Below the pieces are notes generated by a model that did no database searches, had not been told where the DNA came from, and saw only the letters and a program-made list of their open reading frames with translations. Shown here one piece after another: positions 3,001 to 55,343 of a stretch of DNA of 64,000 nucleotides. Made by a program: the position numbers and the translations under genes. Every line of letters begins with the position of its first letter. The first letter of the stretch is position 1. Origin of the DNA: Eledone cirrhosa (taxonomy: Eukaryota); NCBI GenBank assembly GCA_964016885.1, contig OZ024743.1:90396001-90460000 (forward strand), in the 5' to 3' direction.

Positions 3001-6000
3001 TATATAGTCAACATCTACACACTGTATCTATATAGTCAACATCTCCACACTGTATCTATACAGTCAACATCTACACACTGTATCTATACAGTCAACATCT
3101 ACACACTGAATCTATCTATACAGTCAACATGGACACACTGTATCTATCTATATAGTCAACATCTACACATTGTATCTATATAGTCAACATCTACACACTG
3201 TATCTATACAGTCAACATCTACACACTGTATCTATACAGTCAACATCTACACACTGTATCTATACAGTCAACATCTACACACTGTATCTATCTATACAGT
3301 CAACATCTACACACTGTATCTATATAGTCAACATCTACACACTGTATCTATGTATAGAGTCAACATCTACACACTGTATCTATCTATACAGTCAACATCT
3401 ACACACTGTATCTATATAGTCAACATCTACACACTGTATCTATACAGTCAACATCTACACACTGTATCTATCTATACAGTCAACATCTATACACTGTATC
3501 TATATAGTCAACATCTACACACTGTATCTATATAGTCAACATCTACACACTGTATCTATCTATAAAGTCAACATCTACACACTGTATCTATCTATAAAGG
3601 CAACATCTACACACCGTATCTATCTATATAGTCAACATCTACACACTGTATCTATATAGTCAACATCTACACACTGTATCTATATAGTCAACATCTACAC
3701 ACTGTATCTATATAGTCAACATCTACACACTGTATCTATATATTCAACATCTACACACTGTATCTATATAGTCAACATCTACACACTGTATCTATACAGT
3801 CAACATCTACACGCTGAATCTATCTATACAGTCAATATCTATACACTGTATCTATCTATACAGTCAACATCTATACACTGTATCTATATAGGCAACATCT
3901 ACACACTGTATCTATACAGTCAACATCTACACACTGTATCTATACAGTCAACATCTACACACTGTATCTATCTATATAGTCAACATCTACACACTGTATC
4001 TATATAGTCAACATCTACACACTGTATCTATATAGTCAACATCTACACACTGTATCTATATAGTCAACATCTACACACTGTATCTATGTAGTCAACATCT
4101 ACACACTGTATCTATATAGTCAACATCTACACACTGTATCTATACAGTCAACATCTACATGCTGTATCTATCTATACAGTCAATATATATACACTGTATC
4201 TATATAGTCAACATCTACACACTGTATCTATCTATACAGTCAACATCTATACACTGTATCTATATAGGCAACATCTACACACTGTATCTATACAGTCAAC
4301 ATCTACACACTGTATCTATACAGTCAACATCTACACACTGTATCTATCTATATAGTCAACATCTACACACTGTATCTATATAGTCAACATCTACACACTG
4401 TATCTATATAGTCAACATCTACACACTGTATCTATATAGTCAACATCTACACACTGTATCTATCTATATAGTCAACATCTACACTGTATCTATACAGTCA
4501 ACATCTACACACTGTATCTATACAGTCAACATCTACACACTGTATTTATATAGTCAACATCTACACACTGTATCTATCTATACAGTCAACATCTACACAC
4601 TGTATCTATACAGTCAACATCTACACACTGTATCTATATAGTCAACATCTACACACTGTATCTATATAGTCAACATCTACACACTGTATCTATATAGTCA
4701 ACATCTACACACTGTATCTATATAGTCAACATCTACACGCTGTATCTATCTATACAGTCAATATCTATACACTGTATCTATATAGTCAACATCTACACAC
4801 TGTATCTATCTATACAGTCAACATCTATACACTGTATCTATACAGTCAACATCGACACACTGTATCTATACAGTCAACATCTACACACTGTATCTATACA
4901 GTCAACATCTACACACTGTATCTATATAGTCAACATCTACACACTGTATCTATATAGTCAACATCTACACACTGTATCTATATAGTCAACATCTACACAC
5001 TGTATCTATCTATACAGGCAACATCTACACACTGTATCTATACAGTCAACATCTACACACTGTATCTATACAGTCAACATCTACACACTGTATCTATCTA
5101 TATAGTCAACATCTACACACTGTATCTATATAGTCAACATCTACACACTGTATCTATATAGTCAACATCTACACACTGTATCTATATAGTCTACATCTAC
5201 ACACTGTATCTATATAGTCAACATCTACACACTGTATCTATATAGTCAACATCTACACACTGTATCTATACAGTCAACATCTACAAGCTGTATCTATCTA
5301 TACAGTCAATATCTATACACTGTATCTATATAGTCAACATCTACACACTGTATCTATCTATACAGTCAACATCTATACACTGTATCTATATAGGCAACAT
5401 CTACACACTGTATCTATACAGTCAACATCTACACACTGTATCTATACAGTCAACATCTACACACTGTATCTATCTATATAGTCAACATCTACACACTGTA
5501 TCTATATAGTCAACATCTACACACTGTATCTATCTATACAGTCAACATCTACACACTATATCTATACAGTCAACATCTACACACTGTATTTATATAGTCA
5601 ACATCTACACACTGTATCTATATATACAGTCAACATGTACACACTGTATCTATACAGTCAACATCTATACACTGTGACTATCTATACAGTCAGCATCTAC
5701 ATACTTTCTCTATCTATATAGTCAACATCTACACACTGTATCTATCTATACAGTCAACATCTACACACTGTATCTATATAGTCAACATCTACACACTGTA
5801 TCTATATAGTCAACATCTACACACTGTATCTATCTATATAGTCAACATCTATACACTGTATTTATATAGTCAACATCTACACACTGTATCTATACAGGCA
5901 ACATCTACATACTGTATCTATCTATATAGTCAACATCTATACACTGTATTTATATAGTCAACATCTACACACTGTATCTATCTATACTGTCAACATCTAC

Positions 6001-9000
6001 ACACTGTATCTATCTATACAGTCAAAATCTACACACTGTGTCTATCTATCCAGTCAACATCTACACACTGTATCAATACAGTCAACATCGACACACTGTA
6101 TCTAAACAGCCAACATCTACAGACTGTATCTATATAGTCAACATCTACACACTGTATCTATATATATAGTCAACATCTACAAACTGAATCTATATAGTCA
6201 ACATCTACACACGGTATCTATACAGTCAACATCTACACACTGTATCTATACAGTCAACATCTACACACTGTATCTATACAGTCAACATCTACACACTCTA
6301 TCTATATAGTCAACATCTACACACTGTATCTATATAGTCAACATCTACACACTGTATCTATATAGTCAACATCTACACACTGTATCTATCTATATAGTCA
6401 ACATCTACACACTGTATCTATACAGTCAATATCTACACACTGTAACTATCTATATAGTCAACATCTACACACTGTATCTATATAGTCAACATCTACACAC
6501 TGTATCTATATAGTCAACATCTACACACTGAATCTATATATATAGTCAACATCTACACACTGTATCTATATAGTCAACATCTACACACTGTATCTATATA
6601 TATAGTCAACTTCTACACACTGTATCTATGTATATAGTCAACATCTACACACTGTGTCTATCTATACAGTCAACAACTACACACTGTATCTATCTATACA
6701 GTCAACATCTACACACTGTATCTATATATATATAGTCAACATCTACACACTGTATCTTTCTATACAGTCAACATCTACACACTGTATCTATACAGTCAAC
6801 ATCTACACACTGTATATATCTATACAGTCAACATCTACACACTGTATATATACAGTCAACATCTACACACTGTATCTATATAGTCAACATCTACACACTG
6901 TATCTATACAGTCAGCATCTACACACTGTATCTATACAGTCAACATCTACACACTGTATCTATCTATACAGTCAACATCTACACAGGGTATCTATATAGT
7001 CAACACCTACACACTGTATCTATCTATACAGTCAACATCTACACACTATATCTATATAGTCAACATCTACACACTGTATCTATCTATACTGTCAACATCT
7101 ACACACTGTATCTATCTATACAGTCAACATCTACACACTGTGTCTATCTATACAGTCAACATCTACACACTGTATCTATAGTCAACATCTACACACTATC
7201 TATACAGTCAAAATCTACACACTGTATCTCTCTATATAGTCAACATCTACACACTGTATCTATATAGTCAACATCTACACATTGTATCTATCTATACAGT
7301 CAACATCTACACACTGTATCTATATAGTCAACATCTACACACTGTATCTATACAGTCAACATCTACACACTGTATCTATCTATACAGTCAACATCTATAC
7401 ACTGTATCTATATAGGCAACATCTACACACTGTATCTATACAGTCAACATCTACACACTGTATCTATACAGTCAACATCTACACACTGTATCTATCTATA
7501 TAGTCAACATTTACACACTGTATCTATATAGTCAACATCTACACACTGTATCTATACAGTCAACATCTACACACTGTATTTATATAGTCAACATCTACAC
7601 ACTGTATCTATCTATACAGTCAACATGTACACACTGTATCTATACAGTCAACATCTATACACTGTATCTATCTATACAGTCGACATCTACACACTGTATC
7701 TATCTATATAGTCAACATCTACACACTGTATCTATATAGTCAACATCTACACACTGTATCTATATAGTCAACATCTACACACTGTATCTATATAGTCAAC
7801 ATCTACACACTGTATCTATATAGTCAACATCTCCACACTGTATCTATACAGTCAACATCTACACACTGTATCTATACAGTCAACATCTACACACTGAATC
7901 TATCTATACAGTCAACATGGACACACTGTATCTATCTATATAGTCAACATCTACACATTGTATCTATATAGTCAACATCTACACACTGTATCTATACAGT
8001 CAACATCTACACACTGTATCTATACAGTCAACATCTACACACTGTATCTATACAGTCAACATCTACACACTGTATCTATCTATACAGTCAACATCTACAC
8101 ACTGTATCTATGTATAGAGTCAACATCTACACACTGTATCTATCTATACAGTCAACATCTACACACTGTATCTATATAGTCAACATCTACACACTGTATC
8201 TATACAGTCAACATCTACACACTGTATCTATCTATACAGTCAACATCTATACACTGTATCTATATAGTCAACATCTACACACTGTATCTATATAGTCAAC
8301 ATCTACACACTGTATCTATCTATAAAGTCAACATCTACACACTGTATCTATCTATAAAGGCAACATCTACACACCGTATCTATCTATATAGTCAACATCT
8401 ACACACTGTATCTATATAGTCAACATCTACACACTGTATCTATATAGTCAACATCTACACACTGTATCTATATAGTCAACATCTACACACTGTATCTATA
8501 TATTCAACATCTACACACTGTATCTATATAGTCAACATCTACACACTGTATCTATACAGTCAACATCTACACGCTGAATCTATCTATACAGTCAATATCT
8601 ATACACTGTATCTATCTATACAGTCAACATCTATACACTGTATCTATATAGGCAACATCTACACACTGTATCTATACAGTCAACATCTACACACTGTATC
8701 TATACAGTCAACATCTACACACTGTATCTATCTATATAGTCAACATCTACACACTGTATCTATATAGTCAACATCTACACACTGTATCTATATAGTCAAC
8801 ATCTACACACTGTATCTATATAGTCAACATCTACACACTGTATCTATGTAGTCAACATCTACACACTGTATCTATATAGTCAACATCTACACACTGTATC
8901 TATACAGTCAACATCTACATGCTGTATCTATCTATACAGTCAATATATATACACTGTATCTATATAGTCAACATCTACACACTGTATCTATCTATACAGT

Positions 9001-12000
9001 CAACATCTATACACTGTATCTATATAGGCAACATCTACACACTGTATCTATACAGTCAACATCTACACACTGTATCTATACAGTCAACATCTACACACTG
9101 TATCTATCTATATAGTCAACATCTACACACTGTATCTATATAGTCAACATCTACACACTGTATCTATATAGTCAACATCTACACACTGTATCTATATAGT
9201 CAACATCTACACACTGTATCTATCTATATAGTCAACATCTACACTGTATCTATACAGTCAACATCTACACACTGTATCTATACAGTCAACATCTACACAC
9301 TGTATTTATATAGTCAACATCTACACACTGTATCTATCTATACAGTCAACATCTACACACTGTATCTATACAGTCAACATCTACACACTGTATCTATATA
9401 GTCAACATCTACACACTGTATCTATATAGTCAACATCTACACACTGTATCTATATAGTCAACATCTACACACTGTATCTATATAGTCAACATCTACACGC
9501 TGTATCTATCTATACAGTCAATATCTATACACTGTATCTATATAGTCAACATCTACACACTGTATCTATCTATACAGTCAACATCTATACACTGTATCTA
9601 TACAGTCAACATCGACACACTGTATCTATACAGTCAACATCTACACACTGTATCTATACAGTCAACATCTACACACTGTATCTATATAGTCAACATCTAC
9701 ACACTGTATCTATATAGTCAACATCTACACACTGTATCTATATAGTCAACATCTACACACTGTATCTATCTATACAGGCAACATCTACACACTGTATCTA
9801 TACAGTCAACATCTACACACTGTATCTATACAGTCAACATCTACACACTGTATCTATCTATATAGTCAACATCTACACACTGTATCTATATAGTCAACAT
9901 CTACACACTGTATCTATATAGTCAACATCTACACACTGTATCTATATAGTCTACATCTACACACTGTATCTATATAGTCAACATCTACACACTGTATCTA
10001 TATAGTCAACATCTACACACTGTATCTATACAGTCAACATCTACAAGCTGTATCTATCTATACAGTCAATATCTATACACTGTATCTATATAGTCAACAT
10101 CTACACACTGTATCTATCTATACAGTCAACATCTATACACTGTATCTATATAGGCAACATCTACACACTGTATCTATACAGTCAACATCTACACACTGTA
10201 TCTATACAGTCAACATCTACACACTGTATCTATCTATATAGTCAACATCTACACACTGTATCTATATAGTCAACATCTACACACTGTATCTATCTATACA
10301 GTCAACTTCTACACACTATATCTATACAGTCAACATCTACACACTGTATTTATATAGTCAACATCTACACACTGTATCTATATATACAGTCAACATGTAC
10401 ACACTGTATCTATACAGTCAACATCTATACACTGTGACTATCTATACAGTCAGCATCTACATACTTTCTCTATGTATATAGTCAACATCTACACACTGTA
10501 TCTATCTATACAGTCAACATCTACACACTGTATCTATATAGTCAACATCTACACACTGTATCTATATAGTCAACATCTACACACTGTATCTATCTATATA
10601 GTCAACATCTATACACTGTATTTATATAGTCAACATCTACACACTGTATCTATACAGGCAACATCTACATACTGTATCTATCTATATAGTCAACATCTAT
10701 ACACTGTATTTATATAGTCAACATCTACACACTGTATCTATCTATACTGTCAACATCTACACACTGTATCTATCTATACAGTCAAAATCTACACACTGTG
10801 TCTATCTATCCAGTCAACATCTACACACTGTATCAATACAGTCAACATCGACACACTGTATCTAAACAGCCAACATCTACAGACTGTATCTATATAGTCA
10901 ACATCTACACACTGTATCTATATATATAGTCAACATCTACAAACTGAATCTATATAGTCAACATCTACACACGGTATCTATACAGTCAACATCTACACAC
11001 TGTATCTATACAGTCAACATCTACACACTGTATCTATACAGTCAACATCTACACACTCTATCTATATAGTCAACATCTACACACTGTATCTATATAGTCA
11101 ACATCTACACACTGTATCTATATAGTCAACATCTACACACTGTATCTATCTATATAGTCAACATCTACACACTGTATCTATACAGTCAATATCTACACAC
11201 TGTAACTATCTATATAGTCAACATCTACACACTGTATCTATATAGTCAACATCTACACACTGTATCTATATAGTCAACATCTACACACTGTATCTATATA
11301 GTCAACATCTACACACTGTATCTATATAGTCAACATCTACACACTGTATCTATATAGTCAACATCTACACACTGTATCTATACGGTCAACATCTACACAC
11401 TGTATCTATCTATACAGTCAACATCTATACACTGTATCTATATAGGCAACATCTACACACTGTATCTATACAGTCAACATCTACACACTGTACCTATACA
11501 GTCAACATCTAAACACCGTATCTATCTATATAGTCAACATCTACACACTGTATCTATCTATACAGTCAACATCTACACACTGTATCTATCTATACAGTCA
11601 ACATCTACACACTGTATCTATATAGTCAACATCTACACACTGAATCTATATATATAGTCAACATCTACACACTGTATCTATATAGTCAACATCTACACAC
11701 TGTATCTATATATATAGTCAACTTCTACACACTGTATCTATGTATATAGTCAACATCTACACACTGTGTCTATCTATACAGTCAACAACTACACACTGTA
11801 TCTATCTATACAGTCAACATCTACACACTGTATCTATATATATATAGTCAACATCTACACACTGTATCTTTCTATACAGTCAACATCTACACACTGTATC
11901 TATACAGTCAACATCTACACACTGTATATATCTATACAGTCAACATCTACACACTGTATATATACAGTCAACATCTACACACTGTATCTATATAGTCAAC

Positions 12001-15000
12001 ATCTACACACTGTATCTATACAGTCAGCATCTACACACTGTATCTATACAGTCAACATCTACACACTGTATCTATCTATACAGTCAACATCTACACAGGG
12101 TATCTATATAGTCAACACCTACACACTGTATCTATCTATACAGTCAACATCTACACACTATATCTATATAGTCAACATCTACACACTGTATCTATCTATA
12201 CTGTCAACATCTACACACTGTATCTATCTATACAGTCAACATCTACACACTGTGTCTATCTATACAGTCAACATCTACACACTGTATCTATAGTCAACAT
12301 CTACACACTATCTATACAGTCAAAATCTACACACTGTATCTCTCTATATAGTCAACATCTACACACTGTATCTATATAGTCAACATCTACACATTGTATC
12401 TATCTATACAGTCAACATCTACACACTGTATCTATATAGTCAACATCTACACACTGTATCTATACAGTCAACATCTACACACTGTATCTATCTATACAGT
12501 CAACATCTATACACTGTATCTATATAGTCAACATCTACACACTGTATCTATATAGTCAACATCTACACACTGTATCTATATAGTCAACATCTACACACTG
12601 TATCTATCTATAAAGTCAACATCTACACACTGTATCTATCTATAAAGTCAACATCTACACACTGTATCTATCTATATAGTCAACATCTACACACTGTATC
12701 TATATAGTCAACATCTACACACTGTATCTATATAGTCAACATCTACACACTGTATCTATATAGTCAACATCTACACACTGTATCTATATAGTCAACATCT
12801 ACACACTGTATCTATACAGTCAACATCTACACGCTGTATCTATCTATACAGTCAATATCTATACACTGTATCTATATAGTCAACATCTACACACTGTATC
12901 TATCTATACAGTCAACGTCTATACACTGTATCTATATAGGCAACATCTACACACTGTATCTATACAGTCAACATCTACACACTGTATCTATACAGTCAAC
13001 ATCTACACACTGTATCTATCTATATAGTCAACATCTACACACTGTATCTATATAGTCAACATCTACACACTGTATCTATATAGTCAACATCTACACACTG
13101 CATCTATATAGTCAACATCTACACACTGTATCTATATAGTCAACATATACACACTGTATCTATATAGTCAACATCTACACACTGTATCTATACAGTCAAC
13201 ATCTACACGCTGTATCTATACAGTCAACATCTATACACTGTATCTATATAGGCAACATCTACACACTGTATCTATACAGTCAACATCTACACACTGTATC
13301 TATACAGTCAACATCTACACACTATCTATACAGTCAAAATCTACACACTGTATCTCTCTATATAGTCAACATCTACACACTGTATCTATATAGTCAACAT
13401 CTACAAATTGTATCTATCTATACAGTCAACATCTACAAATTGTATCTATCTATACAGTCAACATCTACACACTGTATCTATATAGTCAACATCTACACAC
13501 TGTATCTATACAGTCAACATCTACACACTGTATCTATCTATACAGTCAACATCTATACACTGTATCTATATAGTCAACATCTACACACTGTATCTATATA
13601 GTCAACATCTACACACTGTATCTATCTATAAAGTCAACATCTACACACTGTATCTATCTATATAGTCAACATCTACACACTGTATCTATATCGTCAACAT
13701 CTACACACTGTATCTATATAGTCAACATCTACACACTGTATCTATATAGTCAACATCTACACACTGTATCTATATAGTCAACATCTACACACTGTATCTA
13801 TACGGTCAACATCTACACACTGTATCTATCTATACAGTCAACATCTATACACTGTATCTATATAGGCAACATCTACACACTGTATCTATACAGTCAACAT
13901 CTACACACTGTACCTATACAGTCAACATCTACACACCGTATCTATCTATATAGTCAACATCTACACACTGTATCTATCTATACAGTCAACATCTACACAC
14001 TGTATCTATCTATACAGTCAACATCTACACACTGTATCTATATAGTCAACATCTACACACTGTATCTATATATATAGTCAACATCTACACACTGTATCTA
14101 TATAGTCAACATCTACACACTGTATCTATATATATAGTCAACATCTACACACTGTATCTATATATATAGTCAACATCTACACACTGTATCTATCTATACA
14201 GTCAACAACTACACACTGTATCTATCTATACAGTCAACATCTACACACTGTATCTATATATATATAGTCAACATCTACACACTGTATCTTTCTATACAGT
14301 CAACATCTACACACTGTATCTATACAGTCAACATCTACACACTGTATATATCTATACAGTCAACATCTACACACTGTGTCTATCTATACAGTCAACATCT
14401 ACACACTGTATATATACAGTCAACATCTACACACTGTATCTATATAGTCAACATCTACACACTGTATCTATACAGTCAACATCTACACACTGTATCTATA
14501 CAGTCAACATCTACACACTGTATCTATCTATACAGTCAACATCTACACAGGGTATCTATATAGTCAACACCTACACACTGTATCTATCTATACAGTCAAC
14601 ATCTACACACTGTGTCTATCTATACAGTCAACATCTACACACTGTATCTATACAGTCAACATCTACACACTATCTATACAGTCAAAATCTACACACTGTA
14701 TCTCTCTATATAGTCAACATCTACACACTGTATCTATATAGTCAACATCTACACTTTGTATCTATCTATACAGTCAACATCTACACACTGTATCTATATA
14801 GTCAACATCTACACACTGTATCTATACAGTCAACATCTACACACTGTATCTATCTATACAGTCAACATCTATACACTGTATCTATATAGTCAACATCTAC
14901 ACACTGTATCTATATAGTCAACATCTACACACTGTATCTATCTATAAAGTCAACATCTACACACTGTATCTATCTATAAAGTCAACATCTACACACTGTA

Positions 15001-18000
15001 TCTATCTATATAGTCAACATCTACACACTGTATCTATATAGTCAACATCTACACACTGTATCTATATAGTCAACATCTACACACTGTATCTATATAGTCA
15101 ACATCTACACACTGTATCTATACAGTCAACATCTACACGCTGTATCTATCTATACAGTCAATATCTATACACTCTATCTATATAGTCAACATCTACACAC
15201 TGTATCTATCTATACAGTCAACATCTATACACTGTATCTATATAGGCAACATCTACACACTGTATCTATACAGTCAACATCTACACACTGTATCTATACA
15301 GTCAAAATCTACACACTGTATCTATCTATATAGTCAACATCTACACACTGTATCTATATAGTCAACATCTACACACTGTATCTATATAGTCAACATCTAC
15401 ACACTGTATCTATATAGTCAACATCTACACACTGCATCTATATAGTCAACATCTACACACTGTATCTATATAGTCAACATCTACACACTGTATCTATATA
15501 GTCAACATCTACACACTGTATCTATACAGTCAACATCTACACGCTGTACCTATCTATACAGTCAATATCTATACACTCTATCTATATAGTCAACATCTAC
15601 ACACTGTATCTATCTATACAGTCAACATCTATACACTGTATCTATATAGGCAACATCTACACACTGTATCTATACAGTCAACATCTACACACTGTATCTA
15701 TACAGTCAACATCTACACACTATCTATACAGTCAAAATCTACACACTGTATCTCTCTATATAGTCAACATCTACACACTTTATCTATATAGTCAACATCT
15801 ACAAATTGCATCTATCTATACAGTCAATATCTACACACTGTATCTATATAGTCAACATCTACACACTGTATCTATACAGTCAACATCTACACACTGTATC
15901 TATCTATACAGTCAACATCTATACACTGTATCTATATAGTCAACATCTACACACTGTATCTATATAGTCAACATCTACACACTGTATCTATCTATAAAGT
16001 CAACATCTACACACTGTATCTATCTATAAAGTCAACATCTACACACTGTATCTATCTATATAGTCAACATCTACACACTGTATCTATATCGTCAACATCT
16101 ACACACTGTATCTATATAGTCAAGATCTACACACTGTATCTATATAGTCAACATCTACACACTGTATCTATATAGTCAACATCTACACACTGTATCTATA
16201 TAGTCAACATCTACACACTGTATCTATATAGTCAACATCTACACACTGTATCTATACAGTCAACATCTACACGCTGCATCTATCTATACAGTCAATATCT
16301 ATACACTGTATCTATATAGTCAACATCTACACACTGTATCTATCTATACAGTCAACATCTATACACTGTATCTATCTATATAGTCAACATCTACACACTG
16401 TATCTATCTATAAAGTCAACATCTACACACTGTATCTATCTATATAGTCAACATCTACACACTGTATCTATCTATATAGTCATCATCTACACACTGTATC
16501 TATATAGTCAACATCTACACACTGTATCTATATAGTCAACATCTACACACTGTATCTATATAGTCAACATCTACACACTGTATCTATATAGTCAACATCT
16601 ACACACTGTATCTATACAGTCAACATCTACACGCTATATCTATCTATACAGTCAATATCTATACACTGTATCTATATAGTCAACATCTACACACTGTATC
16701 TATCTATACAGTCAACATCTATACACTGTATCTATATAGGCAACATCTACACACTGTATCTATACAGTCAACATCTACACACTGTATCTATCTATATAGT
16801 CAACATCTACACACTGTATCTATACAATCAACATCTACACACTGTATCTATCTATATAGTCAACATCTACACACTGTATCTATCTATATAGTCAACATCT
16901 ACACACTGTATCTATATAGTCAACATCTACACACTGTATCTATCTATACAGTCAACATCTATACACTGTATCTATATAGGCAACATCTACACACTGTATC
17001 TATACAGTCAACATCTACACACTGTATCTATACAGTCAACATCTACACACTGTATCTATCTATATAGTCAACATTTACACACTGTATCTATATAGTCAAC
17101 ATCTACACACTGTATCTATACAGTCAACATCTACACACTGTATTTATATAGTCAACATCTACACACTGTATCTATCTATACAGTCAACATGTACACACTG
17201 TATCTATACAGTCAACATCTATACACTGTATCTATCTATACAGTCGACATCTACACACTGTATCTATCTATATAGTCAACATCTACACACTGTATCTATA
17301 TAGTCAACATCTACACACTGTATCTATATAGTCAACATCTACACACTGTATCTATATAGTCAACATCTACACACTGTATCTATATAGTCAACATCTCCAC
17401 ACTGTATCTATACAGTCAACATCTACACACTGTATCTATACAGTCAACATCTACACACTGAATCTATCTATACAGTCAACATGTACACACTGTATCTATC
17501 TATATAGTCAACATCTACACATTGTATCTATATAGTCAACATCTACACACTGTATCTATACAGTCAACATCTACACACTGTATCTATACAGTCAACATCT
17601 ACACACTGTATCTATACAGTCAACATCTACACACTGTATCTATCTATACAGTCAACATCTACACACTGTATCTATATAGTCAACATCTACACACTGTATC
17701 TATGTATAGAGTCAACATCTACACACTGTATCTATCTATATAGTCAACATCTACACACTATGTATCTATACAGTCAACATCTACACACTGTATCTATATA
17801 GTCAACATCTACACACTGTATCTATCTATACAGTCAACATCTACACACTGTATCTATCTATACAGTCAATATCTACACACTGTATCTATATAGTCAACAT
17901 CTACACACTGTATCTATCTATACAGTCAACATCTACACACTGTATCTATCTATATAGTCAACATCTACACACTGTATCTATATAGTCAACATCTACACAC

Positions 18001-19640
18001 TGTATCTATCTATACAGTCAAGATCTACACACTGTATCTATATAATCAACATCTACACACTGTATCTATCTATACAGTTAATATCTACACACTGTATCTA
18101 TACAGTCAACATCTACACACTGAATCTATACAGTCAACATCTACACACTGAATCTATACAGTCAACATCTACACACTGTATCTATCTATACAGTCAACAT
18201 CTACACACTGTATCTATACGGTCAACATCTACACACTGTATCTATCTATAGTCAACATCTACACACTGAATCTATCTATACAGTCAACATCTACACACTG
18301 TATCTATATAGTCAACAACTACACACTGTATCTATTTATATAGTCAACATCTACACACTGTATCTATACAGTCAACCTCTACACACTGTGTATATCTATA
18401 CAGTCAGCATCTACATACTTTCTCTATCTATATAGTCAACATCTACACACTGTATCTATCTATATAGTCAACATCTACACACTGTATCTATACAGTCAAC
18501 ATCTACACACTGTGTCTATCTATATAGTCAACATCTACACACTGTATCTATATAGTCAACATCTACACACTGTATCTATCTATACAGTCAACATCTACAC
18601 ACTGTATATATCTATACAGTCAACATCTACACACTGTCTCTATCTATACAGTCAACATCTACACACTGTCTATCTATACAGTCAACATCTACACACCGTA
18701 TCTATCTATACAGTCAACATCTACACACTGTATCTATCTATACCGTCAACATCTACACAGTCTATATAGTCAACATCTACACACTGTATCTATATAGTCA
18801 ACATCTACACACTATATCTATCTATACAGTCAACATCTACACACTGTATCTATATAGTCAACAGCTACACACTGTATCTATCTATATAGTCAACATCTAC
18901 ACACTGTATCTATACAGTCAACATCTACACACTGTATCTATATAGTCAACATCTACATACTGTATCTATCTATATAGTCAACATCTACACACTGTAACTA
19001 AAAAGTCAACATCTACACACTGTATCTATATAGTCAACATCTACACACTGTATCTATACAGTCAACATCTACACACTGTATCTATCTATACAGTCAACAT
19101 CTACACACTGTATCTATCTATATAGTCAACATCTACACACTGTATCTATATAGTCAACATCTACACACTGTATCTATCTATATAGTCAACATCTACACAC
19201 TGTATCTAAATGGTCAATATCTACACACTGTATCTATACAGTCAACATCTACACACTGTATCTATATATACAGTCAACATCTACACACTATATCTATCTA
19301 TATAGTCAACATCTTCACACTGTATCGATACAGTCAACATCTACACACAGTATCTATACAGTCAACATCTACACACAGTATCTATCTATCTGAAAGATAT
19401 CTATCTATGCAGTCAACATCTACACACTGTATCTATCTATGCAGTCAACATCTACACACTGTATCTATCTATGCAGTCAACATCTACACACTGTATCTAT
19501 GCAGTCAACATCTACACACTGTATCTATCTATATAGTCAACATCTACAGGCTGTGTTTATCTATCTATCCGAAAGATATCTATCTATGCAGTCAACAACT
19601 TTACACTTTAACTATCAATACAGTCAACATCTACACACTG
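1..19640. repeat. Satellite array, 29/33-bp monomer AGTCAACATCTACACACTGTATCT(ATCT)ATAY, ~19.6 kb, open at the left edge; intronic to the M6 gene
   Basis: Uninterrupted tandem monomers throughout; length variants differ by one TCTA unit; monomers degenerate from ~17.8 kb to the right edge. Confidence 0.98.
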
Positions 19641-19850: not shown

Positions 19851-19868
19851 TTAAAAATGTATGTGACT

Positions 19869-22293
19869 AAACCTTTAAATTTTTCACTTACTGTTGCAAG
19901 TGAGACCACACTGTATATATAAACTACGTTTCATTTACCATTATTAGTAAGACCACAATGTATATATAAACTAGGTTTCATTTACCATTGCAAGTGAGAC
20001 CACAATGTATATATAAACTAGGTTTCATTTACCATTGCAAGTGAGACCACAATGTATATATAAAGTAGGTTTCATTTACCATTGCAAGTGACACCACAAT
20101 GTATATATAAAGTAGGTTTCATTTACCATTGCAAGTGACACCACAATGTATATATAAAGTAAGTTTCATTTACCATTGCAAGTGAGACCACAATGTATAT
20201 ATAAAGTAGGTTTCATTTACCATTGCAAGTGACACCACAATGTATATATAAAGTAAGTTTCATTTACCATTGCAAGTGAGACCACAATGTATATATAAAC
20301 TAGGTTTCATTTACCATTGCAAGTGAGACCACAATGTATATATAAAGTAGGTTTCATTTACCATTGCAAGTGACACCACAATGTATATATAAAGTAAGTT
20401 TCATTTACCATTGCAAGTGAGACCACAATGTATATATAAACTAGGTTTCATTTACCATTACAAGTGAGACTACAATGTATATATAAACTAGGTTTCATTT
20501 ACCATTGCAAGTGAGACCACAATGTATATGTAAAGTAGGTTTCATTTACCATTGCAAGTAAGACCACAATGTATATATAAACTAGGTTTTATTTACCATT
20601 GCAAGTAAGACCACAATGTATATATAGACTAGGTTTCATTTACCATTACAAGTAAGACCACAATGTATATATAAACTAGGTTTCATTTAGCATTATAAGT
20701 GAGACCACAATGTATATATAAACTAGGTTTCATTTAGCATTATAAGTGAGACCACAATGTATATATAAACTAGGTTTCATTTACCATTACAAGTGAGACC
20801 ACAATGTATATATAAACTAGGTTTCATTTAGCATTATAAGTGAGACCACAACGTATATATAAACTAGGTTTCATTTACCATTGCAAGTGAGACCACAATG
20901 TATATATAAACTAGGTTTCATTTACCATTGCAAGTGAGACCACACTGTATATATAAACTAGGTTTCATTTACCATTACAAGTGAGACCACAATGTATATA
21001 TAAACTAGGTTTCATTTACCATTACAAATGAGACCACAATGTATATATAAACTAGGTTTCATTTACCATTACAAGTGAGACCACGATGTATATATAAACT
21101 AGGTTTCATTTACCATTACAAGTGAGACCACAATGTATATATAAACTAGGTTTCATTTACCATTGGAAGTGAGACCACAATGTATATATAATCTAGGTTT
21201 CAATTACCATTACAAGTGAGACCACACTGTATATATAAACTAGGTTTCATTTACCATTACAAGTGAGACCACGATGTATATATACACTAGGTTTCATTTA
21301 CCATTACAAATGAGACCACAATGTATATATAAACTAGGTTTCATTTACCATTACAAGTGAGACCACGATGTATATATAAACTAGGTTTCATTTACCATTA
21401 CAAGTGAGACCACGATGTATATATAAACTAGGTTTCATTTACCATTACAAGTGAGACCACAATGTATATATAAACTAGGTTTCATTTACCATTGGAAGTG
21501 AGACCACAATGTATATATAATCTAGGTTTCAATTACCATTACAAGTGAGACCACACTGTATATATAAACTAGGTTTCATTTACCATTACAAGTGAGACCA
21601 CGATGTATATATACACTAGGTTTCATTTACCATTACAAGTGAGACCACAATGTATATATAAACTAGGTTTCGTTTAGCATTATAAGTGAGACCACAATGT
21701 ATATATAAACTAGGTTTCATTTACCATTACAAGTGAGACCACACTGTATATAAAAACTAGGTTTCATTTACCATTACAAGTGAGACCACGATGTATATAT
21801 ACACTAGGTTTCATTTACCATTACAAGTGAGACCACAATGTATATATAAACTAGGTTTCATTTAGCATTATAAGTGAGACCACAATGTATATATAAACTA
21901 GGTTTCATTTAGCATTATAAGTGTGACCACATTGTATATATAAACTAGGTTTCATTTACCATTACAAGTGAGACCACAATGTATATATAAACTAGGTTTC
22001 ATTTACCATTACAAGTGAGACCACAATGTATATATAAACTAGGTTTCATTTAGCATTATAAGTGAGACCACAACGTATATATAAACTAGGTTTCATTTAC
22101 CATTGCAAGTGAGACCACAATGTATATATAAACTAGGTTTCATTTAGCATTATAAGTGAGACCACAATGTATATATAAACTAGGTTTCATTTACCATCAC
22201 AAGTGAGACCACAATTTATATATATAAACTAGGTTTCATTTACCATTGGAAGTGAGACCACAATGTATATGTAAACTAGGTTTCATTTACCAT
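19869..22293 (+). repeat. 47-bp satellite, left block (~51 units; ACCATTRCAAGTGAGACCACAATGTATATATAAACTAGGTTTCATTT)
   Basis: Direct tandem periodicity of 47 bp (e.g. TTTACCATT at 19981 and 20028). Confidence 0.97.
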
Positions 22294-23525
22294 TTATATA
22301 TACATTGTGGTCTCACATCCAATGGTAAATGAAACCTAGTTTATATACACAGTGTGGTCTCACTTGCAATGGTAAATGAAACCTAGTTTAAATATACATT
22401 GTGGTCTCACTTGCAATGGTAAATGAAACCTAGTTTATATATACATTGTGGTCTCACATCCAATGGTAAATGAAACCTAGTTTATATGTACTTTGTGGTC
22501 TCACTTGCAATGGTAAATGAAACCTAGTTTATATATATAGTGTGGTCACACTTGTAATGGTAAATGAAACCTAGTTTATATATACAGTGTGGTCTCACTT
22601 ATAATGGTAAATGAAACCTAGTTATATATACATTGTGGTCTCACTTGCATTGGGAAGTGAAACCTAGTTTATATATACATTGTGGTCTCACTTGCAATGA
22701 CAAATGAAACCTAGTTTATATATACAGTGTGGTTTCACTTGTAATGGTAAATGAAACCTAGTTTATATATACTTTGTGGTCTCACTTGCAATGGTAAATG
22801 AAACCTAGTTTATATATATAGTGTGGTCACACATGTAATGGTAAATGAAACCTAGTTTATATATACATTGTGGTCTCACTTGTAATGGTAAATGAAACCT
22901 AGTTTATATATACATCGTGGTCTCACTTGTAATGGTAAATGAAACCTAGTTTATATATACAGTGTGGTCTCACTTGTAATGGTAAATGAAACCTAGTTTA
23001 TATATACATTGTGGTCTCACTTCCAATGGTAAATGAAACCTAGTTTATATATATAAATTGTGGTCTCACTTGTAATGGTAAATGAAACCTAGTTTATATG
23101 TACATTGTGGTCTTACTTGCAATGGTAAATGAAACCTAGTTTATATACACATTGTGGTCTCACATCCAATGGTAAATGAAACCTAGTTTATATACACAGT
23201 GTGGTCTCACTTGCAATGGTAAATGAAACCTAGTTTATATATACATTGTGGTCTTACTTGCAATGGTAAATGAAACCTAGTTTATATATACATTGTGGCC
23301 TCACATCCAATGGTAAATGAAACCTAGTTTATATACACAGTGTGGTCTCACTTGCAATGGTAAATGAAACCTAGTTTAAATATACATTGTGGTCTCACTT
23401 GCAATGGTAAATGAAACCTAGTTTAAATATACATTGTGGTCTCACTTGCAATGGTAAATGAAACCTAGTTTATATATACATTGTGGTCTCACTTGTAATG
23501 GTAAATGAAACCTAGTATATATATA
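22294..23525 (-). repeat. 47-bp satellite, inverted block (~26 units)
   Basis: Same monomer as reverse complement (CATTGTGGTCTCACTTGCAATGGTAAATGAAACCTAGTTTATATATA); abrupt orientation switch at ...CATTTACCAT|TTATATATACATTGTGG. Confidence 0.97.
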
Positions 23526-23672
23526 CACACTTACACCTCTCCAAGACAATGTCACTGGACCGAGACCTTTGGCGGTACTCAGTAACAGAGAAGACCCGCC
23601 TTACCTATAGTAAAACCTACTAGAGCCAGTAGGCATCTCTAACAAAATACCCCCCCTCCGCCCCCCCATCCA
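23526..23672 (+). repeat. Non-satellite spacer; diverged fragment of a dispersed SINE-associated repeat
   Basis: TTACACCTCT...GACCGAGACCTTTGGCG...CAGTAACAGAGAAGACCCG aligns by eye with 39022-39150 and 54913-55030. Confidence 0.65.
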
Positions 23673-25434
23673 CACTAGGTTTCATTTACCATTGCAAGTG
23701 AGACCACACTGTATATTTAAACTGGCTTTCATTTACAATTGCAAATGAGACCACACTGTGTATATAAACTAGGTTTCATTTACCATTGCAAGTGAGAGCA
23801 CAATGTATATTTAAACTAGGTTTCATTTACCATTGCAAGTAAGACCACCACACTGTATATATAAACTAGATTTCATTTACCATTACAAGTGAGACCACAC
23901 TGTATATATAAACTAGGTTTCATTTACCATTATAAGTGAGACCACACTCTATATATATATACTAGATTTCATTTATCATTACAAGTGAGACCACGTTGTA
24001 TATATAAACTAGATTTCATATACCATTACAAGTGAGACCACACTGTATATACAAACTAGGTTTCATTTACCATTACAAGTGAGACCACACTGTATATATA
24101 AACTAGGTTTCATTTACCATTGCAAGTGAGACCACAAAGTATATATAAACTAGGTTTCATTTACCATTACAAGTGAAACCACACTGTAAATATAAACTAG
24201 GTTTCATTTACCATTGCAAGTGAGACCACAATGTATATATAAACTAGGTTTCACTTCCCATTGCAAGTGAGACCACAATGTATATATAAACTAGGTTTCA
24301 TTTACCATTATAAGTGAGACCACAATGTATATATAAACTAGTTTTCATTTACCATTGCAAGTGAGACCACACTGTGTATATAAACTAGGTTTCATTTACC
24401 ATTGCAAGTGAGACCACACTGTATATATAAACTAGGTTTCATTTACCATTACAAGTAAGACCACAATGTATATATAAACTAGGTTTCATTTACCATTACA
24501 AGACCACAATGTATATATAAACTAGCTTTCATTTACCATTGCAAGTGAGACCACAATGTATATTTAAACTAGGTTTCATTTACCATTACAAGTGAGACTA
24601 CAATGTATATATAATCTAGGTTTCATTTACCATTACAAGTGAAACCACAATGTATATATAAACTAGGTTTCATTTACCATTGCAAGTGAGACCACAAAGT
24701 ATATATAAACTAGGTTTCATTTACCATTGCAAGTGAGACCACAATGTATATATAAACTAGGTTTCATTTACCATTGCAAGTGAGACCACACTGTATATAT
24801 AAACTAGGTTTCATTTACCATTACAAGTAAGACCACAATGTATATATAATCTAGGTTTCATTTACCATTACAAGTGAGACCACAATGTATATATAATCTA
24901 GGTTTCATTTACCATTACAAGTGAGACCACAATGTATATATAAACTAGGTTTCATTTACCATTGGAAGTGAGACCACAATGTATATATAAACTAGGTTTC
25001 ATTTACCATTGCAAGTGAGACCACAATGTATATATAAACTAGGTTTCATTTACCATTGCCAGTGAGACCACACTGTATATATAAACTAGGTTTCATTTAC
25101 CATTGCAAGTGAGACCACAATGTATATATAATCTAGGTTTCATTTACCATTGCCAGTGAGACCACACTGTATATATAAACTAGGTTTCATTTACCATTAC
25201 AAGTGAGACCACACTGTATATATAAACTAGGTTTCATTTACCATTACAAGTGAGACCACACTGTATATATAAACTAGGTTTCATTTACCATTGGAAGTGA
25301 GACTACAATGTATATATAAACTAGGTTTCATTTACCATTACAAGTGAGACCACACAGTATATATAAACTAGGTTTCATTTACCATTACAAGTGAAGCCAC
25401 AATGTATATATAAACCTTTAAATGTTTCACTTAC
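23673..25434 (+). repeat. 47-bp satellite, right block (~37 units), abutting an M6 splice donor
   Basis: 47-bp periodicity; grades into the exon/intron junction sequence at 25412-25452. Confidence 0.97.
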
Positions 25435-25500
25435 CATTGCAAGGGAGGCCACAAATGCACCAATATAAGAAACAATAAAGAGTTGGCCTGACTCTTCAAT
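25435..25500 (-). CDS. M6: M6/proteolipid (PLP/DM20/GPM6 family) coding exon 6, TM4: IEESGQLFIVSYIGAFVASLAM
   Basis: ttattttacag acceptor, ATG|gtaagt donor, 66 nt, phase 0/0; resembles the GPM6 TM4 segment LFIVALAGAGAAVIAM. Confidence 0.88.
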
Positions 25501-27162: not shown

Positions 27163-27251
27163 ACGAGTACACATCCGTCGCAAATTGGTTGGTGAGCAAA
27201 GAACTGACGGAGCCGAATCAACAGTCTTTTGGGTGCTGTTGCTAAAAATAC
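27163..27251 (-). CDS. M6: M6/proteolipid coding exon 5, second extracellular loop: (G)IFSNSTQKTVDSAPSVLCSPTNLRRMCTR
   Basis: ctctctttcag acceptor, gtaatt donor, 89 nt, phase 1/0; supplies the 3rd and 4th conserved loop cysteines. Confidence 0.82.
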
Positions 27252-32557: not shown

Positions 32558-32720
32558 CAAAATTACTAAGATCCAAACAAAATTTGACATCACTGGCTTT
32601 TTTGTTTAATACGTGTTCATTGCAAATAGCATTGAACATAATAAATACAAGAATTGGTACGACACTCAGTGATACTATAATGACCCATGCTATATTGCAG
32701 ATATAGGTGATAACCATTAG
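32558..32720 (-). CDS. M6: M6/proteolipid coding exon 4, TM3 and loop: LMVITYICNIAWVIIVSLSVVPILVFIMFNAICNEHVLNKKASDVKFCLDLSNF(G)
   Basis: ttatatttcag acceptor, G|gtgtgt donor, 163 nt, phase 0/1; TY..x..W..P TM3 pattern; CLDLSNFG corresponds to the family C.D.RQ[YF]G motif. Confidence 0.9.
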
Positions 32721-33490: not shown

Positions 33491-34575
33491 CATCATCATC
33501 ATCGCTTTATGTCCTTTTTCCATGCTGTCATATGTTGGATGGAAAGGGGCGAACACAGTCTGAAACTAGACTGGTCTGAGAATTACACTACTCGTACTTT
33601 CCAGTTTTGGCATGGTTTCTACAGCTGGTTGCCCTTCCTTAAGCCAACCACCATACAGCATGTACTGGGTATATTTTATTGTGGCACCATCACTGCTACT
33701 TTACAATGTGCATTTTATTCTGGCACCAAAACCACTACTTTACAGAGTGTACTGGGTACATTTTATTGTGGCACCATCACTCCCACTTTACAGAGTGTAT
33801 TGGCTGTGTTTTATTATGGTACCATCACTACCACTTTACAGAGTGTATTGGCTGTGTTTTATTGTGGTACCATCACTACCACTTTACAGAGTGTATTGGC
33901 TGTGTTTTATTATGGTACCATCACTACCACTTTACAGAGTGTATTGGCTGTGTTTTATTGTGGTACCATCACTACCACTTTACAGAGTGTATTGGCTGTG
34001 TTTTATTATGGTACCATCACTACCACTTTACAGAGTGTATTGGCTGTGTTTTATTATGGTACCATCACTACCACTTTACAGAGTGTATTGGCTGTGTTTT
34101 ATTGTGGTACCATCACTACCACTTTACAGAGTGTATTGGCTGTGTTTTATTGTGGTACCATCACTACCACTTTACAGAGTGTATTGGCTGTGTTTTATTG
34201 TGGTACCATCACTACCACTTTACAGAGTGTATTGGCTGTGTTTTATTGTGGTACCATCACTACCACTTTACAGAGTGTATTGGCTGTGTTTTATTATGGT
34301 ACCATCACTACCACTTTACAGAGTGTATTGGCTGTGTTTTATTGTGGTACCATCACTACCACTTTTCAGAGTGTATTGGCTGTGTTTTATTGTGGTACCA
34401 TCACTACCACTTTTCAGAGTGTATTGGCTGTGTTTTATTGTGGTACCATCACTACCACTTTACAGAGTGTATTGGCTGTGTTTTATTGTGGTACCATCAC
34501 TACCACTTTACAGAGTGTATTGGCTGTGTTTTATTGTGACACCAGAAAAACAAGCTTACAGAATGTACTAAGTGC
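33488..34575 (-). repeat. RTE-tailed SINE whose internal 48-bp module is expanded to ~19 tandem copies (33650-34575)
   Basis: Unit ACTACCACTTTACAGAGTGTATTGGCTGTGTTTTATTRTGGTACCATC; flanked by (CAT)n tail and GGTTTCTACAGCTGG..GCCCTTCCT motif also seen in reverse at 39240-39410, 41540-41830, 42200-42500 and 55080-55340. Confidence 0.9.
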
Positions 34576-36066: not shown

Positions 36067-36226
36067 AAAAAGTGCCGATGTCTGTCCACCCATTATACAT
36101 GTCATCCCAGCATATACTTGGTTCCGTGTTGCACGAGTTACTAGCAAACCAAACAGCAGAAGAAACAGTACATAAAGTGCCATTGCAATTGCAATAACCA
36201 AAAACACATCTTGCAGAGTTTCCAAC
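36067..36226 (-). CDS. M6: M6/proteolipid coding exon 3, TM2 and cytoplasmic loop: (W)LETLQDVFLVIAIAMALYVLFLLLFGLLVTRATRNQVYAGMTCIMGGQTSALF
   Basis: tttttttttag acceptor, gtaagt donor, 160 nt, phase 2/0; matches the invertebrate M6 motif G.L.TGATR...Y....C..GG. Confidence 0.92.
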
Positions 36227-38929: not shown

Positions 38930-39415
38930 ATTATCTAGAAGTCGACAGAAGTCGACGGAAGCCGCAGAGTGGGGAGACCCAAGAAGACCTGGGATGAGGT
39001 GATAAAAGCCAACCATAACCAATTACACCTCTCAAAGGAGGTGACACACGACCGTGACCTCTGGCGTCACGCAGTAATACAGAAGACCCGACCCGCCACG
39101 GATACAAGCCGAAGCTGAAGCATATAGACAATATGCCCCCACCCCCTCCCACTGTAAAGTGGTCATGGAAGTGCCACGGCAAAAAAGGACCCAGCCCACA
39201 CTGTAAAGTGGACATGTAGGCGCCACGGAAAAAAGCACCCAGCACTCACTGTAAATGAGGTTGGTGTTAGGAAGGGCATCCAGCTGTAGAAATCAAGCCA
39301 GAATCAGTTCCTGAGCAAGGGAAGGTCAGCCGACCAGACACTGCCCACAACAGGACAACCCGTCTAACCCATGCTAGCGTGGAAGAACGGACATAAAACG
39401 GTGATGATGATGATT
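38930..39415 (+). mobile_element. RTE-tailed SINE-like repeat
   Basis: CACCCAGCAC..CTGTAAA..GGTTGGTGTTAGGAAGGGCATCCAGC modules; tail CTAACCCATGCTAGCGTGGAA...(GAT)n resembling the RTE 3' end; related copies at 41530-41840, 42200-42500 and 54820-55340. Confidence 0.8.
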
Positions 39416-40810: not shown

Positions 40811-41993
40811 ATCTCCTGTGTTTTTCTACTCTAGTAAAATCTGCCTTGAATTTATCTTAAAGAATGTACTGGATGCATTTTATCATGACACCAGCACTAC
40901 CACTTTACAGAGTATACTAGGTGAATCTTATTATGGCCCCAACATCACTTCAAGCTAATTGAACACTCATTAACTACACAAAGATAAGCAAATGAGTGAC
41001 CTACATGGTTACTCAGTCTGTTAGAAATAGCACCTAAATTTTTCTCAAATCCCATTCTCTTGTCTTTTATTAAAAATAGTATCAAAATCTCATAGATCCA
41101 ATATTATGTGAGGTAAAGCTTTTACCATGAAAATGTAATAGTAAATATAATAGTATATATAGAGTAATATAAATGCTAAAGGGTTAATACTTTGTTACCA
41201 TATTTCTAATGAAAAACACTGTCTGTATGTTTCAAGTAATTTTGAAAATAATCAGTAATTTGGAGGGATTTAGTAATATGACTAACTTTCTTATTAAGCT
41301 AGCATTTGGAACAAAGATTCTTGCATAAAATTATATGTTTTTAGATAAATATAAACACTGTATTTCTAATGAAAGAAACTGCCTATGATTTTCAAATAAT
41401 TTTGAAAATTATCAAGAATTTGGTGGGATTTAATGATGTAACTAACTTTCTCATTATTAAGCTGGTGTTTGGAAGATGACTTAACGGAAGTTCTCAGATA
41501 AAATTACAATGGAAGGTTTTTAAAATAAATATAATGGTGACATGACAAAAAGCCCCAGCCCACACTGTAAAGTGGTTGTGTAGGTGACATGGCAAAAAGC
41601 ACCCAGCCCACATTGTAAAGTGGTTGTGTGGGTGTCACGGCAAAAAGCGTCCCGCCCACTCTGAAAAGTGGTAGGCTTTAGGAAGGGCACCCAACCATAG
41701 AAACCAAACCAAAATCAGTTCTGTATAAGTAAGGCGCAGTCATCTAATCTGGCATGTCTCACAACAGGATAGCTCATCTAACCAATGATAGCGCAAAAAA
41801 TGGACATTAAATGGTGCTGATGATGAAGATGATGACAATGATAAACATTTAAAAATAAGCAGTTTTGTATCATAGAACTAAGACTGGTTTGGTATCAAAA
41901 ATGTTAAAGAACCTCTAGAACAAAAATATCAATGCTGTTAATAAATAAAAATTACAGAGGAACTAAAAAAAAAATGAAAGTAAGGTTTCTTAC

Positions 41994-42150
41994 CAATTCA
42001 ATCTGTAATGAAACAAATCTTGAAATATGGATACTGTGAAGATGCTCAGCGCTTTATACATAGTACCAGCAAACAGTGAAATACTAATGATGCCAATAAT
42101 AGCAGCTATTAACGAAGCATATGGAACAGCATTCAATTTAGAAGAGTAAC
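41994..42150 (-). CDS. M6: M6/proteolipid coding exon 2, TM1: (G)YSSKLNAVPYASLIAAIIGIISISLFAGTMYKALSIFTVSIFQDLFHYRLN(W)
   Basis: tttcttccag acceptor, gtaaga donor, 157 nt, phase 1/2; VPYASLIA is the PLP/DM20/M6 signature. Confidence 0.93.
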
Positions 42151-42509
42151 CTGGAAGAAAAATCAAAGTTTAATGTACAATGAATTTATTGAAATATGGT
42201 CATGATGGCGACACGGCAAAAAGCACCCATCCCACACTGTAACGTGGTCGTATAGGTGTCACAACAAAATGCATCCAGTCCACAATGTAAAATGATCGTT
42301 TAGACGTCATGACAAAAAGTACCCAGTACTCACAGCAAATAAAGTTAGCATTAGGAAGGCCATCCAACTGTAGAAACCAAACCAAAATCAGTTCTGTATA
42401 AGCAAAATATGGTCATCTGACCTGGCGTTGCCCACAACAGGACAACTCGTCTAACCCATGCTAGCATGGAAGAATGGACGTTAAATGATGATGATGATGT
42501 ACAATGTAA

Positions 42510-54705: not shown

Positions 54706-55343
54706 TCATTTAATATAATTAGTTCAAGAAATGATAAGTCAAACACAGAGATTCAAAAACACAAAAACTTATTAGTATCACACCTATAAGGAAGCAGAAT
54801 ATATATAAATATATATATGCCCCAGCATGGCCTCAGTCAGGTGGCTGGAACAAGTAAAAGAATAAGAGTATATATATATATTGGATGAGGTGATAACAGC
54901 TGACCTTGCTCAATTGCACCTCTCACAGGACTGAGATCTCTGGCGTTACACAGTAATACAGAAGACTTGACTTCCCACCGGCACGGGCCGAAGCTGAAGC
55001 ATATATAGTGTATGCCCCACCCCACCCTCCCATACATCCCCCATGAGGACAGGTCGAAGTATGCATCCACTGAAACCCCCAGCCCACACTGTAAAGTGGT
55101 CGTGATGGTGACATGGCAAAAGGCGCCCAGCCCACTCTGTAAAGTGGGCGTGTAGATGTCACGACAAAAGTCACCCTGTAAATGAGGTTAGCACTAAGTA
55201 AAGCATCCAGCTGTAGAAACCAAGCCAAAATCAGTTCTGTGTGAGCAAGACATGGTCACCTGACCTAGCATTGCCCACAACAGTACAACTCATCTAACGC
55301 TTGCTAGCGTGGAAGAATGGACGTAAAACGGTGATGATCATCA

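Follow-up and report, generated by a model that had tools for sequence, protein, structure and literature searches.

The gene and its last splice junctions

The window analysed here is a stretch of 64,000 nucleotides of Eledone cirrhosa DNA (GCA_964016885.1, contig OZ024743.1, positions 90,396,001 to 90,460,000), to which all positions below refer unless a genome coordinate is given. Its minus strand carries exons of an M6/proteolipid (M6/PLP) gene, and the last intron of this gene opens with a tandem array of a 47-bp unit that resembles the end of the preceding exon together with its 5' splice site (donor). The exons and the authentic donor are as follows, with a bar marking the exon–intron boundary.

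41994 to 42150, minus strand: M6/PLP coding exon, 157 nt, donor TTG|GTAAGA; PF01275 positions 8-49, E 3e-9
36067 to 36226, minus strand: M6/PLP coding exon, 160 nt, donor TTT|GTAAGT; PF01275 positions 63-111, E 1.7e-4
32558 to 32720, minus strand: M6/PLP coding exon, 163 nt, donor TTG|GTGTGT; PF01275 positions 114-165, E 6e-8
27163 to 27251, minus strand: M6/PLP coding exon, 89 nt, donor CGT|GTAATT without +5 G; aligns to molluscan M6
25435 to 25500, minus strand: coding exon of 66 nt (22 codons), last but one in the gene; the final 23 nt form the exon part of the repeat
25429 to 25437, minus strand: authentic 5' splice site ATG|GTAAGT, with the donor at 25434, which starts the last intron
From G000:C4:90296287 downward: last M6 exon, beyond the window

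A PF01275 profile search of the genome gave 21 matches at E <=10, three of them in the window and two of these three at or over the cut-off. With each exon scanned alone, the profile matches are colinear on the three upstream exons, while a Pfam scan of the 89-nt and 66-nt exons, again each alone, gave no match. A single open frame runs across six M6 exons. The protein comparison is based on these six exons, from the one at 41994 to the last, and the product reaches 74% to Octopus vulgaris M6-a-like and 72% to Argonauta over 238 residues. The colinear profile matches and the whole-length likeness to named M6 proteins place the gene in the M6/proteolipid family (PF01275). The initial annotation, made from the letters alone, called it a neural gene; this label is not established, Drosophila M6 being reported to act also at epithelial tricellular junctions (PMC11698045).

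The 66-nt exon is short. Taken alone against three distant relatives, it outscores its shuffled versions in one of three cases (0, 1423, and 220 of 2000 shuffles reach its score), and a homologue search with one M6 exon as query returned no match. Its identity follows from the continuity of the frame and from the octopod proteins. No alignment gap occurs over the 25435 junction against the Octopus vulgaris and Argonauta proteins, and 81 of 88 relatives of at least 150 amino acids are likewise ungapped there. These alignments therefore argue that the exon at 25435-25500 and its donor are real parts of an octopod M6/proteolipid gene. The initial annotation had assumed as much, and the open frame, the PF01275 matches upstream, and the octopod M6 proteins bear it out.

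Structure of the array

The array itself is divided into six parts, listed here in the direction of transcription.

25406 to 25457, minus strand: first unit across the junction, beginning at the exon CATTT, with the long intron start kept
23676 to 25405, minus strand: sense block 1, 37 copies of the 47-bp unit
23525 to 23675, plus strand: fragment of a long interspersed nuclear element (LINE), 151 bp, at the inversion joint
22296 to 23524, plus strand: inverted block, 26 copies antisense to the transcript
19914 to 22295, minus strand: sense block 2, 51 copies
19855 to 19913, minus strand: terminal unit with long intron start, followed by a second CATTT and unique intron

The junction resembles the monomer far beyond chance. 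Their local alignment score is 56, whereas the best of 12,556 background windows scores 38. The last 23 bases of the exon alone score 32 against the monomer, and not one of 34,252 background windows gets as high. The earlier proposal that the monomer copies the M6 exon end plus its 5' splice site is thereby confirmed. It was also proposed that the quoted monomer follows the junction immediately. The array does follow the donor, but the quoted unit is the typical one, and three bases set the first copy apart from it.

Tandem Repeats Finder (TRF) describes a 47-bp array at 19882-25415 with 116.9 copies. Counted donor by donor there are 115 copies, namely 88 internal sense copies, one terminal copy with the donor ACA|GTAAGT at 19891, and 26 antisense copies, close to the previously estimated 114 or so with about 88 in sense. 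The copy number of the whole array comes from one assembly. In short-read contigs (two runs of one sample), monomer-like pieces appear at high summed depth, compared with about 10 for unique sequence, and the 66-nt exon is left uncovered.

On average, the 106 units with a length of 47 bp lie 4.4% away from their consensus. The inner units have been homogenised and the edge units excluded, the long form being kept at both edges of the array; the initial annotation had noticed this at the far end, and it holds for the first and the last unit alike. At donor position +5, A is found in 85 of 88 sense copies and in 25 of 26 antisense ones, in agreement with the earlier statement that nearly all copies carry +5 G>A. 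The GT is retained in 78 of 88 sense and 24 of 26 antisense copies, and each transcript contains 74 ATG|GTAAAT sites. A self-BLAST at word size 60 found no internal duplication of at least 150 bp at 97% in the array.

Inverted block and LINE fragment

The 26-copy inverted block and the LINE fragment inside the array go beyond what was annotated before. Divergence is similar within and between blocks (6.7-7.7%), so the inversion cannot be dated. Among the short-read contig pieces listed, none bridges the inversion joint with at least 31 bases on each side, so it is the assembly alone that records the inversion. The inverted units (22296-23515, minus) also contain, as transcribed, 23 weak donor-like sites, mostly CAA|GTGAGA, at about -4.6 kcal/mol of U1 pairing.

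The 151-bp piece belongs to a dispersed element with 467 candidates genome-wide, presumably a LINE of the RTE clade judging by its motifs. In four LINE copies examined, the same piece corresponds to the end of the open reading frame and the start of the 3' untranslated region, with the element continuing on both sides. It is an inner fragment joined via a few shared bases, and its joint looks like break repair rather than retrotransposition. Read on the transcript strand, the fragment brings two donors into the array, TAG|GTAAGG at 23604 with -9.9 kcal/mol and GGT|GTAAGT at 23534 with -8.3 kcal/mol.

At 23604 (minus) an acceptor-like AG abuts the strong donor, an arrangement reminiscent of a recursive splice site, with a poor pyrimidine tract. 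Recursive splicing at this site seems unlikely, in view of that tract, of two AG closely upstream, and of the small gain, as it would remove only 1.8 of 125 kb.

Origin in place

A 27-nt pattern allowing up to three mismatches has 113 matches in the 3.0 Gb genome, the 100 matches listed all being in the array, and the window accounts for 26 + 87 = 113. For the exact pattern, 53 of 53 genome matches lie in the array, and a DNA search with the monomer returned one candidate locus. Such pattern searches would miss more diverged copies. All 113 matches lie in the array, and the array is therefore taken to have arisen in place as a single-locus minisatellite; the initial annotation had named a single-locus array as support for exactly this. 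Its term "satellite" is right as to the tandem arrangement, but "single-locus minisatellite" is the better name, the arrays at several loci that characterise a dispersed satellite being absent for M6. That a dispersed satellite landed beside a look-alike donor deserves next to no credence: at up to three mismatches in 27 there are zero matches elsewhere in the 3.0 Gb, and both edges of the array grade into unique exon or intron sequence.

The edges hint at how the first duplication came about. The word CATTT opens the first unit, in the exon, and recurs directly after the last unit, and when the edges are joined the two words lie 55 nt apart. Exact 5-mers recurring at 55-nt spacing occur at 81 of 38,400 local positions. 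In the model for which Haber and Louis are cited (PMC3389668), a stretch between direct repeats of 5-10 bp is duplicated by slippage or unequal crossing-over, and the CATTT edges of M6 fit this model as it is summarised there. Compared with the putative original, the typical unit carries five substitutions and five gaps, and +5 G>A is one of these differences. It probably goes back to a single founder change that amplification then spread, as opposed to 85 separate events.

An accidental local duplication is the likely origin of the array, and a sequence of five steps may be envisaged. The 55-bp stretch between the two CATTT words would first have been duplicated via slippage or unequal exchange. 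An inner unit would then have been cut to 47 bp and have acquired about ten changes, including +5 G>A, after which this 47-bp unit would have been amplified and homogenised, leaving the edge units behind. A later break could have produced the 1.2-kb inverted block with the LINE fragment at one joint. Throughout, splicing would stay with the most upstream donor, next to the acceptor side of the exon and stronger than every other junction copy, and would yield normal mRNA, while rare use of a copy would yield a truncated protein.

Junction-born arrays in ECM29

The same genome contains further cases. In the 200 kb of the ECM29 gene region examined, two successive exons (PF13001 positions 122-174 and 175-245) are each followed by a junction-born array.

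G000:C9:10591760-10599244 and 10605412-10620320: ECM29 junction-born arrays

One array consists of about 335 copies of 45 bp and one of about 115 copies of 41 bp. Donors identical to the first are found at 232 of 332 sites for CAA|GTAAGT and at 113 of 114 sites for TAG|GTGAGT. Like the M6 array, they represent an exon end and donor amplified in place. Unlike in M6, most copies keep the sequence of the real donor, and the inversion is a feature of M6, with TRF showing none in the ECM29 arrays. A microhomology origin could not be shown for the ECM29 arrays. The 41-bp array is split into two blocks with about 2.7 kb of other DNA between them.

Minisatellites are routine in the ECM29 region of this genome, with 29 arrays totalling 61.7 kb in the 200 kb. 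A hand estimate (about 14 arrays, at least eight donors, 68 kb of non-array DNA) gives about 0.07 expected births of donor-covering arrays, with one found. One ECM29 donor array that was not preselected against about 0.07 expected is a hint only. A further array of 61 copies of 40 bp, at G000:C9:10473574-10476011, has CAG|GTAAAC in all units; no exon was recognised ahead of it.

Known junction-spanning minisatellites

Minisatellites whose first unit lies across an exon–intron boundary are reported for the human genes F7, 6-16, CBS, lamin B2, and PDGF (PMC1557585). The closest is the 37-bp variable number tandem repeat (VNTR) in intron 7 of F7 (Borensztajn et al. 2006), which resembles M6 in that the first unit lies over the junction and a ladder of donors extends into the intron (PMC1557585). 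F7 has 5-9 identical copies with four exon bases, and its splicing was tested (PMC1557585), whereas M6 has 115 copies with 22 exon bases and a changed +5; M6 further differs by its inverted block and LINE fragment. According to the same source, the most upstream donor of F7 is used despite stronger downstream sites, short of the perfect consensus, and pseudo-sites that are identical or stronger stay unused. The repeats of 6-16, CBS, lamin B2, and PDGF are donor-spanning as in M6, there with 10-25 copies. In intron 2 of 6-16 and intron 13 of CBS, two pseudo-sites are reported to be used beside the real one; M6 differs from these two in having more copies and no in-frame copy product (PMC1557585).

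Among invertebrates, lancelet "mirages" are described in Adh3, the globins BflGb6 and BflGb9, PGBD5, and troponin C (PMC3087553, PMC3902484). They share with M6 the tandem copies of an exon–intron boundary and the edge units that stand outside concerted evolution, and their splicing is reported to be undisturbed. The mirages described are low in copy number, with 3-7 for globin and PGBD5 (PMC3087553, PMC3902484), whereas the array of M6, a mollusc case, is long and inverted in its interior part.

The 25-bp VNTR in intron 18 of human ABCA7 resembles M6 as a long repeat at a donor, with tens to more than 200 copies (PMC13747324). It is described as donor-adjacent, not as a copy of the exon end, and it comes with disease and splicing data: use of intronic donors is reported to lead to premature stops, and the repeat is linked to aberrant splicing (PMC13747324).

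With its boundary-spanning first unit, its single locus, its reiterated splice signal (with +5 A), and its homogenised inner units, the M6 array belongs, by its sequence features, to this known class, which includes the F7-type VNTR and the lancelet mirage. No cephalopod case of a donor-spanning minisatellite appeared in the top-ranked results of a literature search.

Strength of the copied donors

Donor strength was modelled with the U1 5' end taken from the same genome, as plain RNA duplex energies without pseudouridine or proteins. The real donor reaches -9.9 kcal/mol, the typical copy -5.3, the terminal copy -6.4, and the donor of the 89-nt exon -2.1. In this model, the copies are weaker than the real donor but not dead.

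These energies bear on the idea that weak decoys were selected, the array having been able to grow only once +5 G>A had cut competition with the real donor. Apart from the poorer U1 pairing of the copies, it is in favour of this idea that none of the inner M6 copies combines GT with +5 G. +5 G survives in a GGAAGT at 24258 and its inverted twin at 22653, which count as one event, and in the terminal ACA|GTAAGT. The GGAAGT unit possibly dates from a stage at which the 47-mer still had +5 G. Several observations count against it. The ECM29 arrays carry hundreds of donors identical to the real one, the TAG|GTAAGG at 23604 equals the real donor in score, +5 is just one of the changes that separate the typical unit from the original, and in M6 itself the donor of the exon at 27163 lacks +5 G. 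Sense copies show no excess loss of GT either (10 of 88 lost it, versus 2 of 26 in antisense; Fisher p 0.73), and variant types per position are 1.2 in the donor core versus 1.0 elsewhere (p 0.44). There is no sign of selection on the copy donors. Selection for weak decoys is considered unlikely. The earlier suggestion that the array is tolerated because its decoys are weakened is not needed, given the intact ECM29 donors, the 23604 site, and the F7 precedent (PMC1557585).

Predicted fold and possible RNA editing

Through the 1.2-kb inverted block, the pre-mRNA is predicted to form a long RNA duplex. When 25520-22300 is folded, block 1 takes up 1119 of the 1220 antisense bases in pairs, and the stem is extended by the real junction. 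Folding the whole array leaves 1174 of the 1224 antisense bases paired with copies, and the real donor is unpaired with the inverted block. Masking of the real donor is accordingly not robust across the modelled folds.

It has been reported that RNA editing is able to create donors (PMC9105294) and that editing is extensive in squid nerve (PMC4384741), which would make the +5 A an intriguing candidate site. A hairpin switch could be imagined on this basis, in which the inverted block hides the decoys or the real donor, and ADAR turns +5 A into the G-like inosine. The extensive predicted pairing would suit such a switch, and the 125-kb intron may leave time for folding. The modelled energies point the other way, as the antisense block prefers copies over the real junction (-77.6 vs -46.1), and holding the real donor open costs just 7.3 kcal/mol, below the gain from U1 pairing. 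Moreover, 26 antisense copies fall short of the 88 to be covered, nothing would be gained by editing the other donor A's, and the inverted block is recorded only in the assembly. The switch is regarded as very unlikely. An equally slim chance is given to its fuller version, in which the duplex would be edited by ADAR, and editing at +5 A would rebuild donors or loosen the stem over the real donor, setting productive M6 splicing. If true, a repeat born by accident would have turned into an editing-controlled splice switch, in a group with a high level of editing in nerve.

Possible use of the copies

The array is probably a near-neutral minisatellite in which the first donor wins. By analogy with the mammalian and lancelet precedents, the spare splice signals are likely left unused. 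What the copies would encode can be read from the sequence. Use of copy 1 would add 52 nt and shift the frame of the last exon, and use of copies 2-4 would bring in a stop just past the donor of copy 1, lying 39, 86, and 133 nt ahead of the new junction. None of the four copies examined gives an in-frame product, and the stop past the donor of copy 1 blocks all later copies. As translated here, the ladder cannot yield a new full-length M6 isoform. The initial annotation had offered the array as a source of alternative donors; these would give only frameshifted or truncated protein.

Leaky donors might nevertheless tune the level of M6, with the first copies partly used to make unproductive mRNA according to copy number or tissue. 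The GT is intact in most sense copies, which out-pair the real donor of the 89-nt exon with U1. Frameshift and stops would follow from their use, and the later products would be decay targets if the 50-nt rule holds. Precedents are reported in 6-16 and CBS (PMC1557585) as well as ABCA7 (PMC13747324). On the other side stand the missing in-frame products and the position of the real donor, which is upstream and stronger. Tuning by leaky donors is quite unlikely.

Three points weigh against a near-neutral array whose copies stay silent. By analogy, human 6-16 and CBS also use the nearest pseudo-sites (PMC1557585), and in ABCA7 the repeat's length is reported to track aberrant splicing (PMC13747324). 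In M6 itself every +5 G copy has another weakening change, which would fit a purge of strong copies; there are just two such events, therefore too few to carry weight. Overall, a functional reading of the array is weak, and the role of splicing modulator suggested in the initial annotation found no support.

The remainder of the last intron

The last M6 intron measures 125,147 nt and ends outside the window. It is made up of 5.6 kb of the 47-bp array, a 311-nt spacer, about 118.5 kb of a second satellite, and a 735-nt tail.

1 to 19548, on to G000:C4:90297022: 28/32-bp satellite, unrelated to the 47-bp array, about 118.5 kb, most of the last intron

This satellite is gap-free and in one orientation. 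A DNA search with it gave 261 matches, and the 150 listed all lie inside its block in the M6 intron. It is nearly devoid of poly(A) signals and GTRAG sites.

The composition of the intron is relevant to the suggestion that the array acts as a U1 sink, or guards the 125-kb intron against early polyadenylation. The many ATG|GTAAAT sites per transcript and the great length of the intron would be in line with this, but the sites are weak, and for a sink two gene copies face a very abundant small nuclear ribonucleoprotein (snRNP), U1 snRNP numbering about a million per human cell. As for a shield, the intron has only three AATAAA and two ATTAAA hexamers, one of the five being made by the array. A role as U1 sink or shield is extremely unlikely. 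The array-made hexamer is the AATAAA gained by one copy at 20593 (minus); no poly(A) hexamer stands earlier in the intron.

Elsewhere in the window, 48-bp repeats are found at 33713-34538, 39150-39255, 41536-41672, 42217-42327, and 55078-55170. They resemble the 3' tail behind LINE copies, and one has grown to 17 copies in another M6 intron.

Implications

The M6 array extends the class of junction-spanning minisatellites to octopods, by a large example. Its inverted block adds a predicted long duplex near a donor in an animal group with heavy RNA editing. The array would matter more only with RNA showing regulated use of the copies. Together, M6 with its weakened copies and ECM29 with its intact copies would offer, in one genome, a natural test of "first donor wins" in a mollusc, with more than 100 competing sites.

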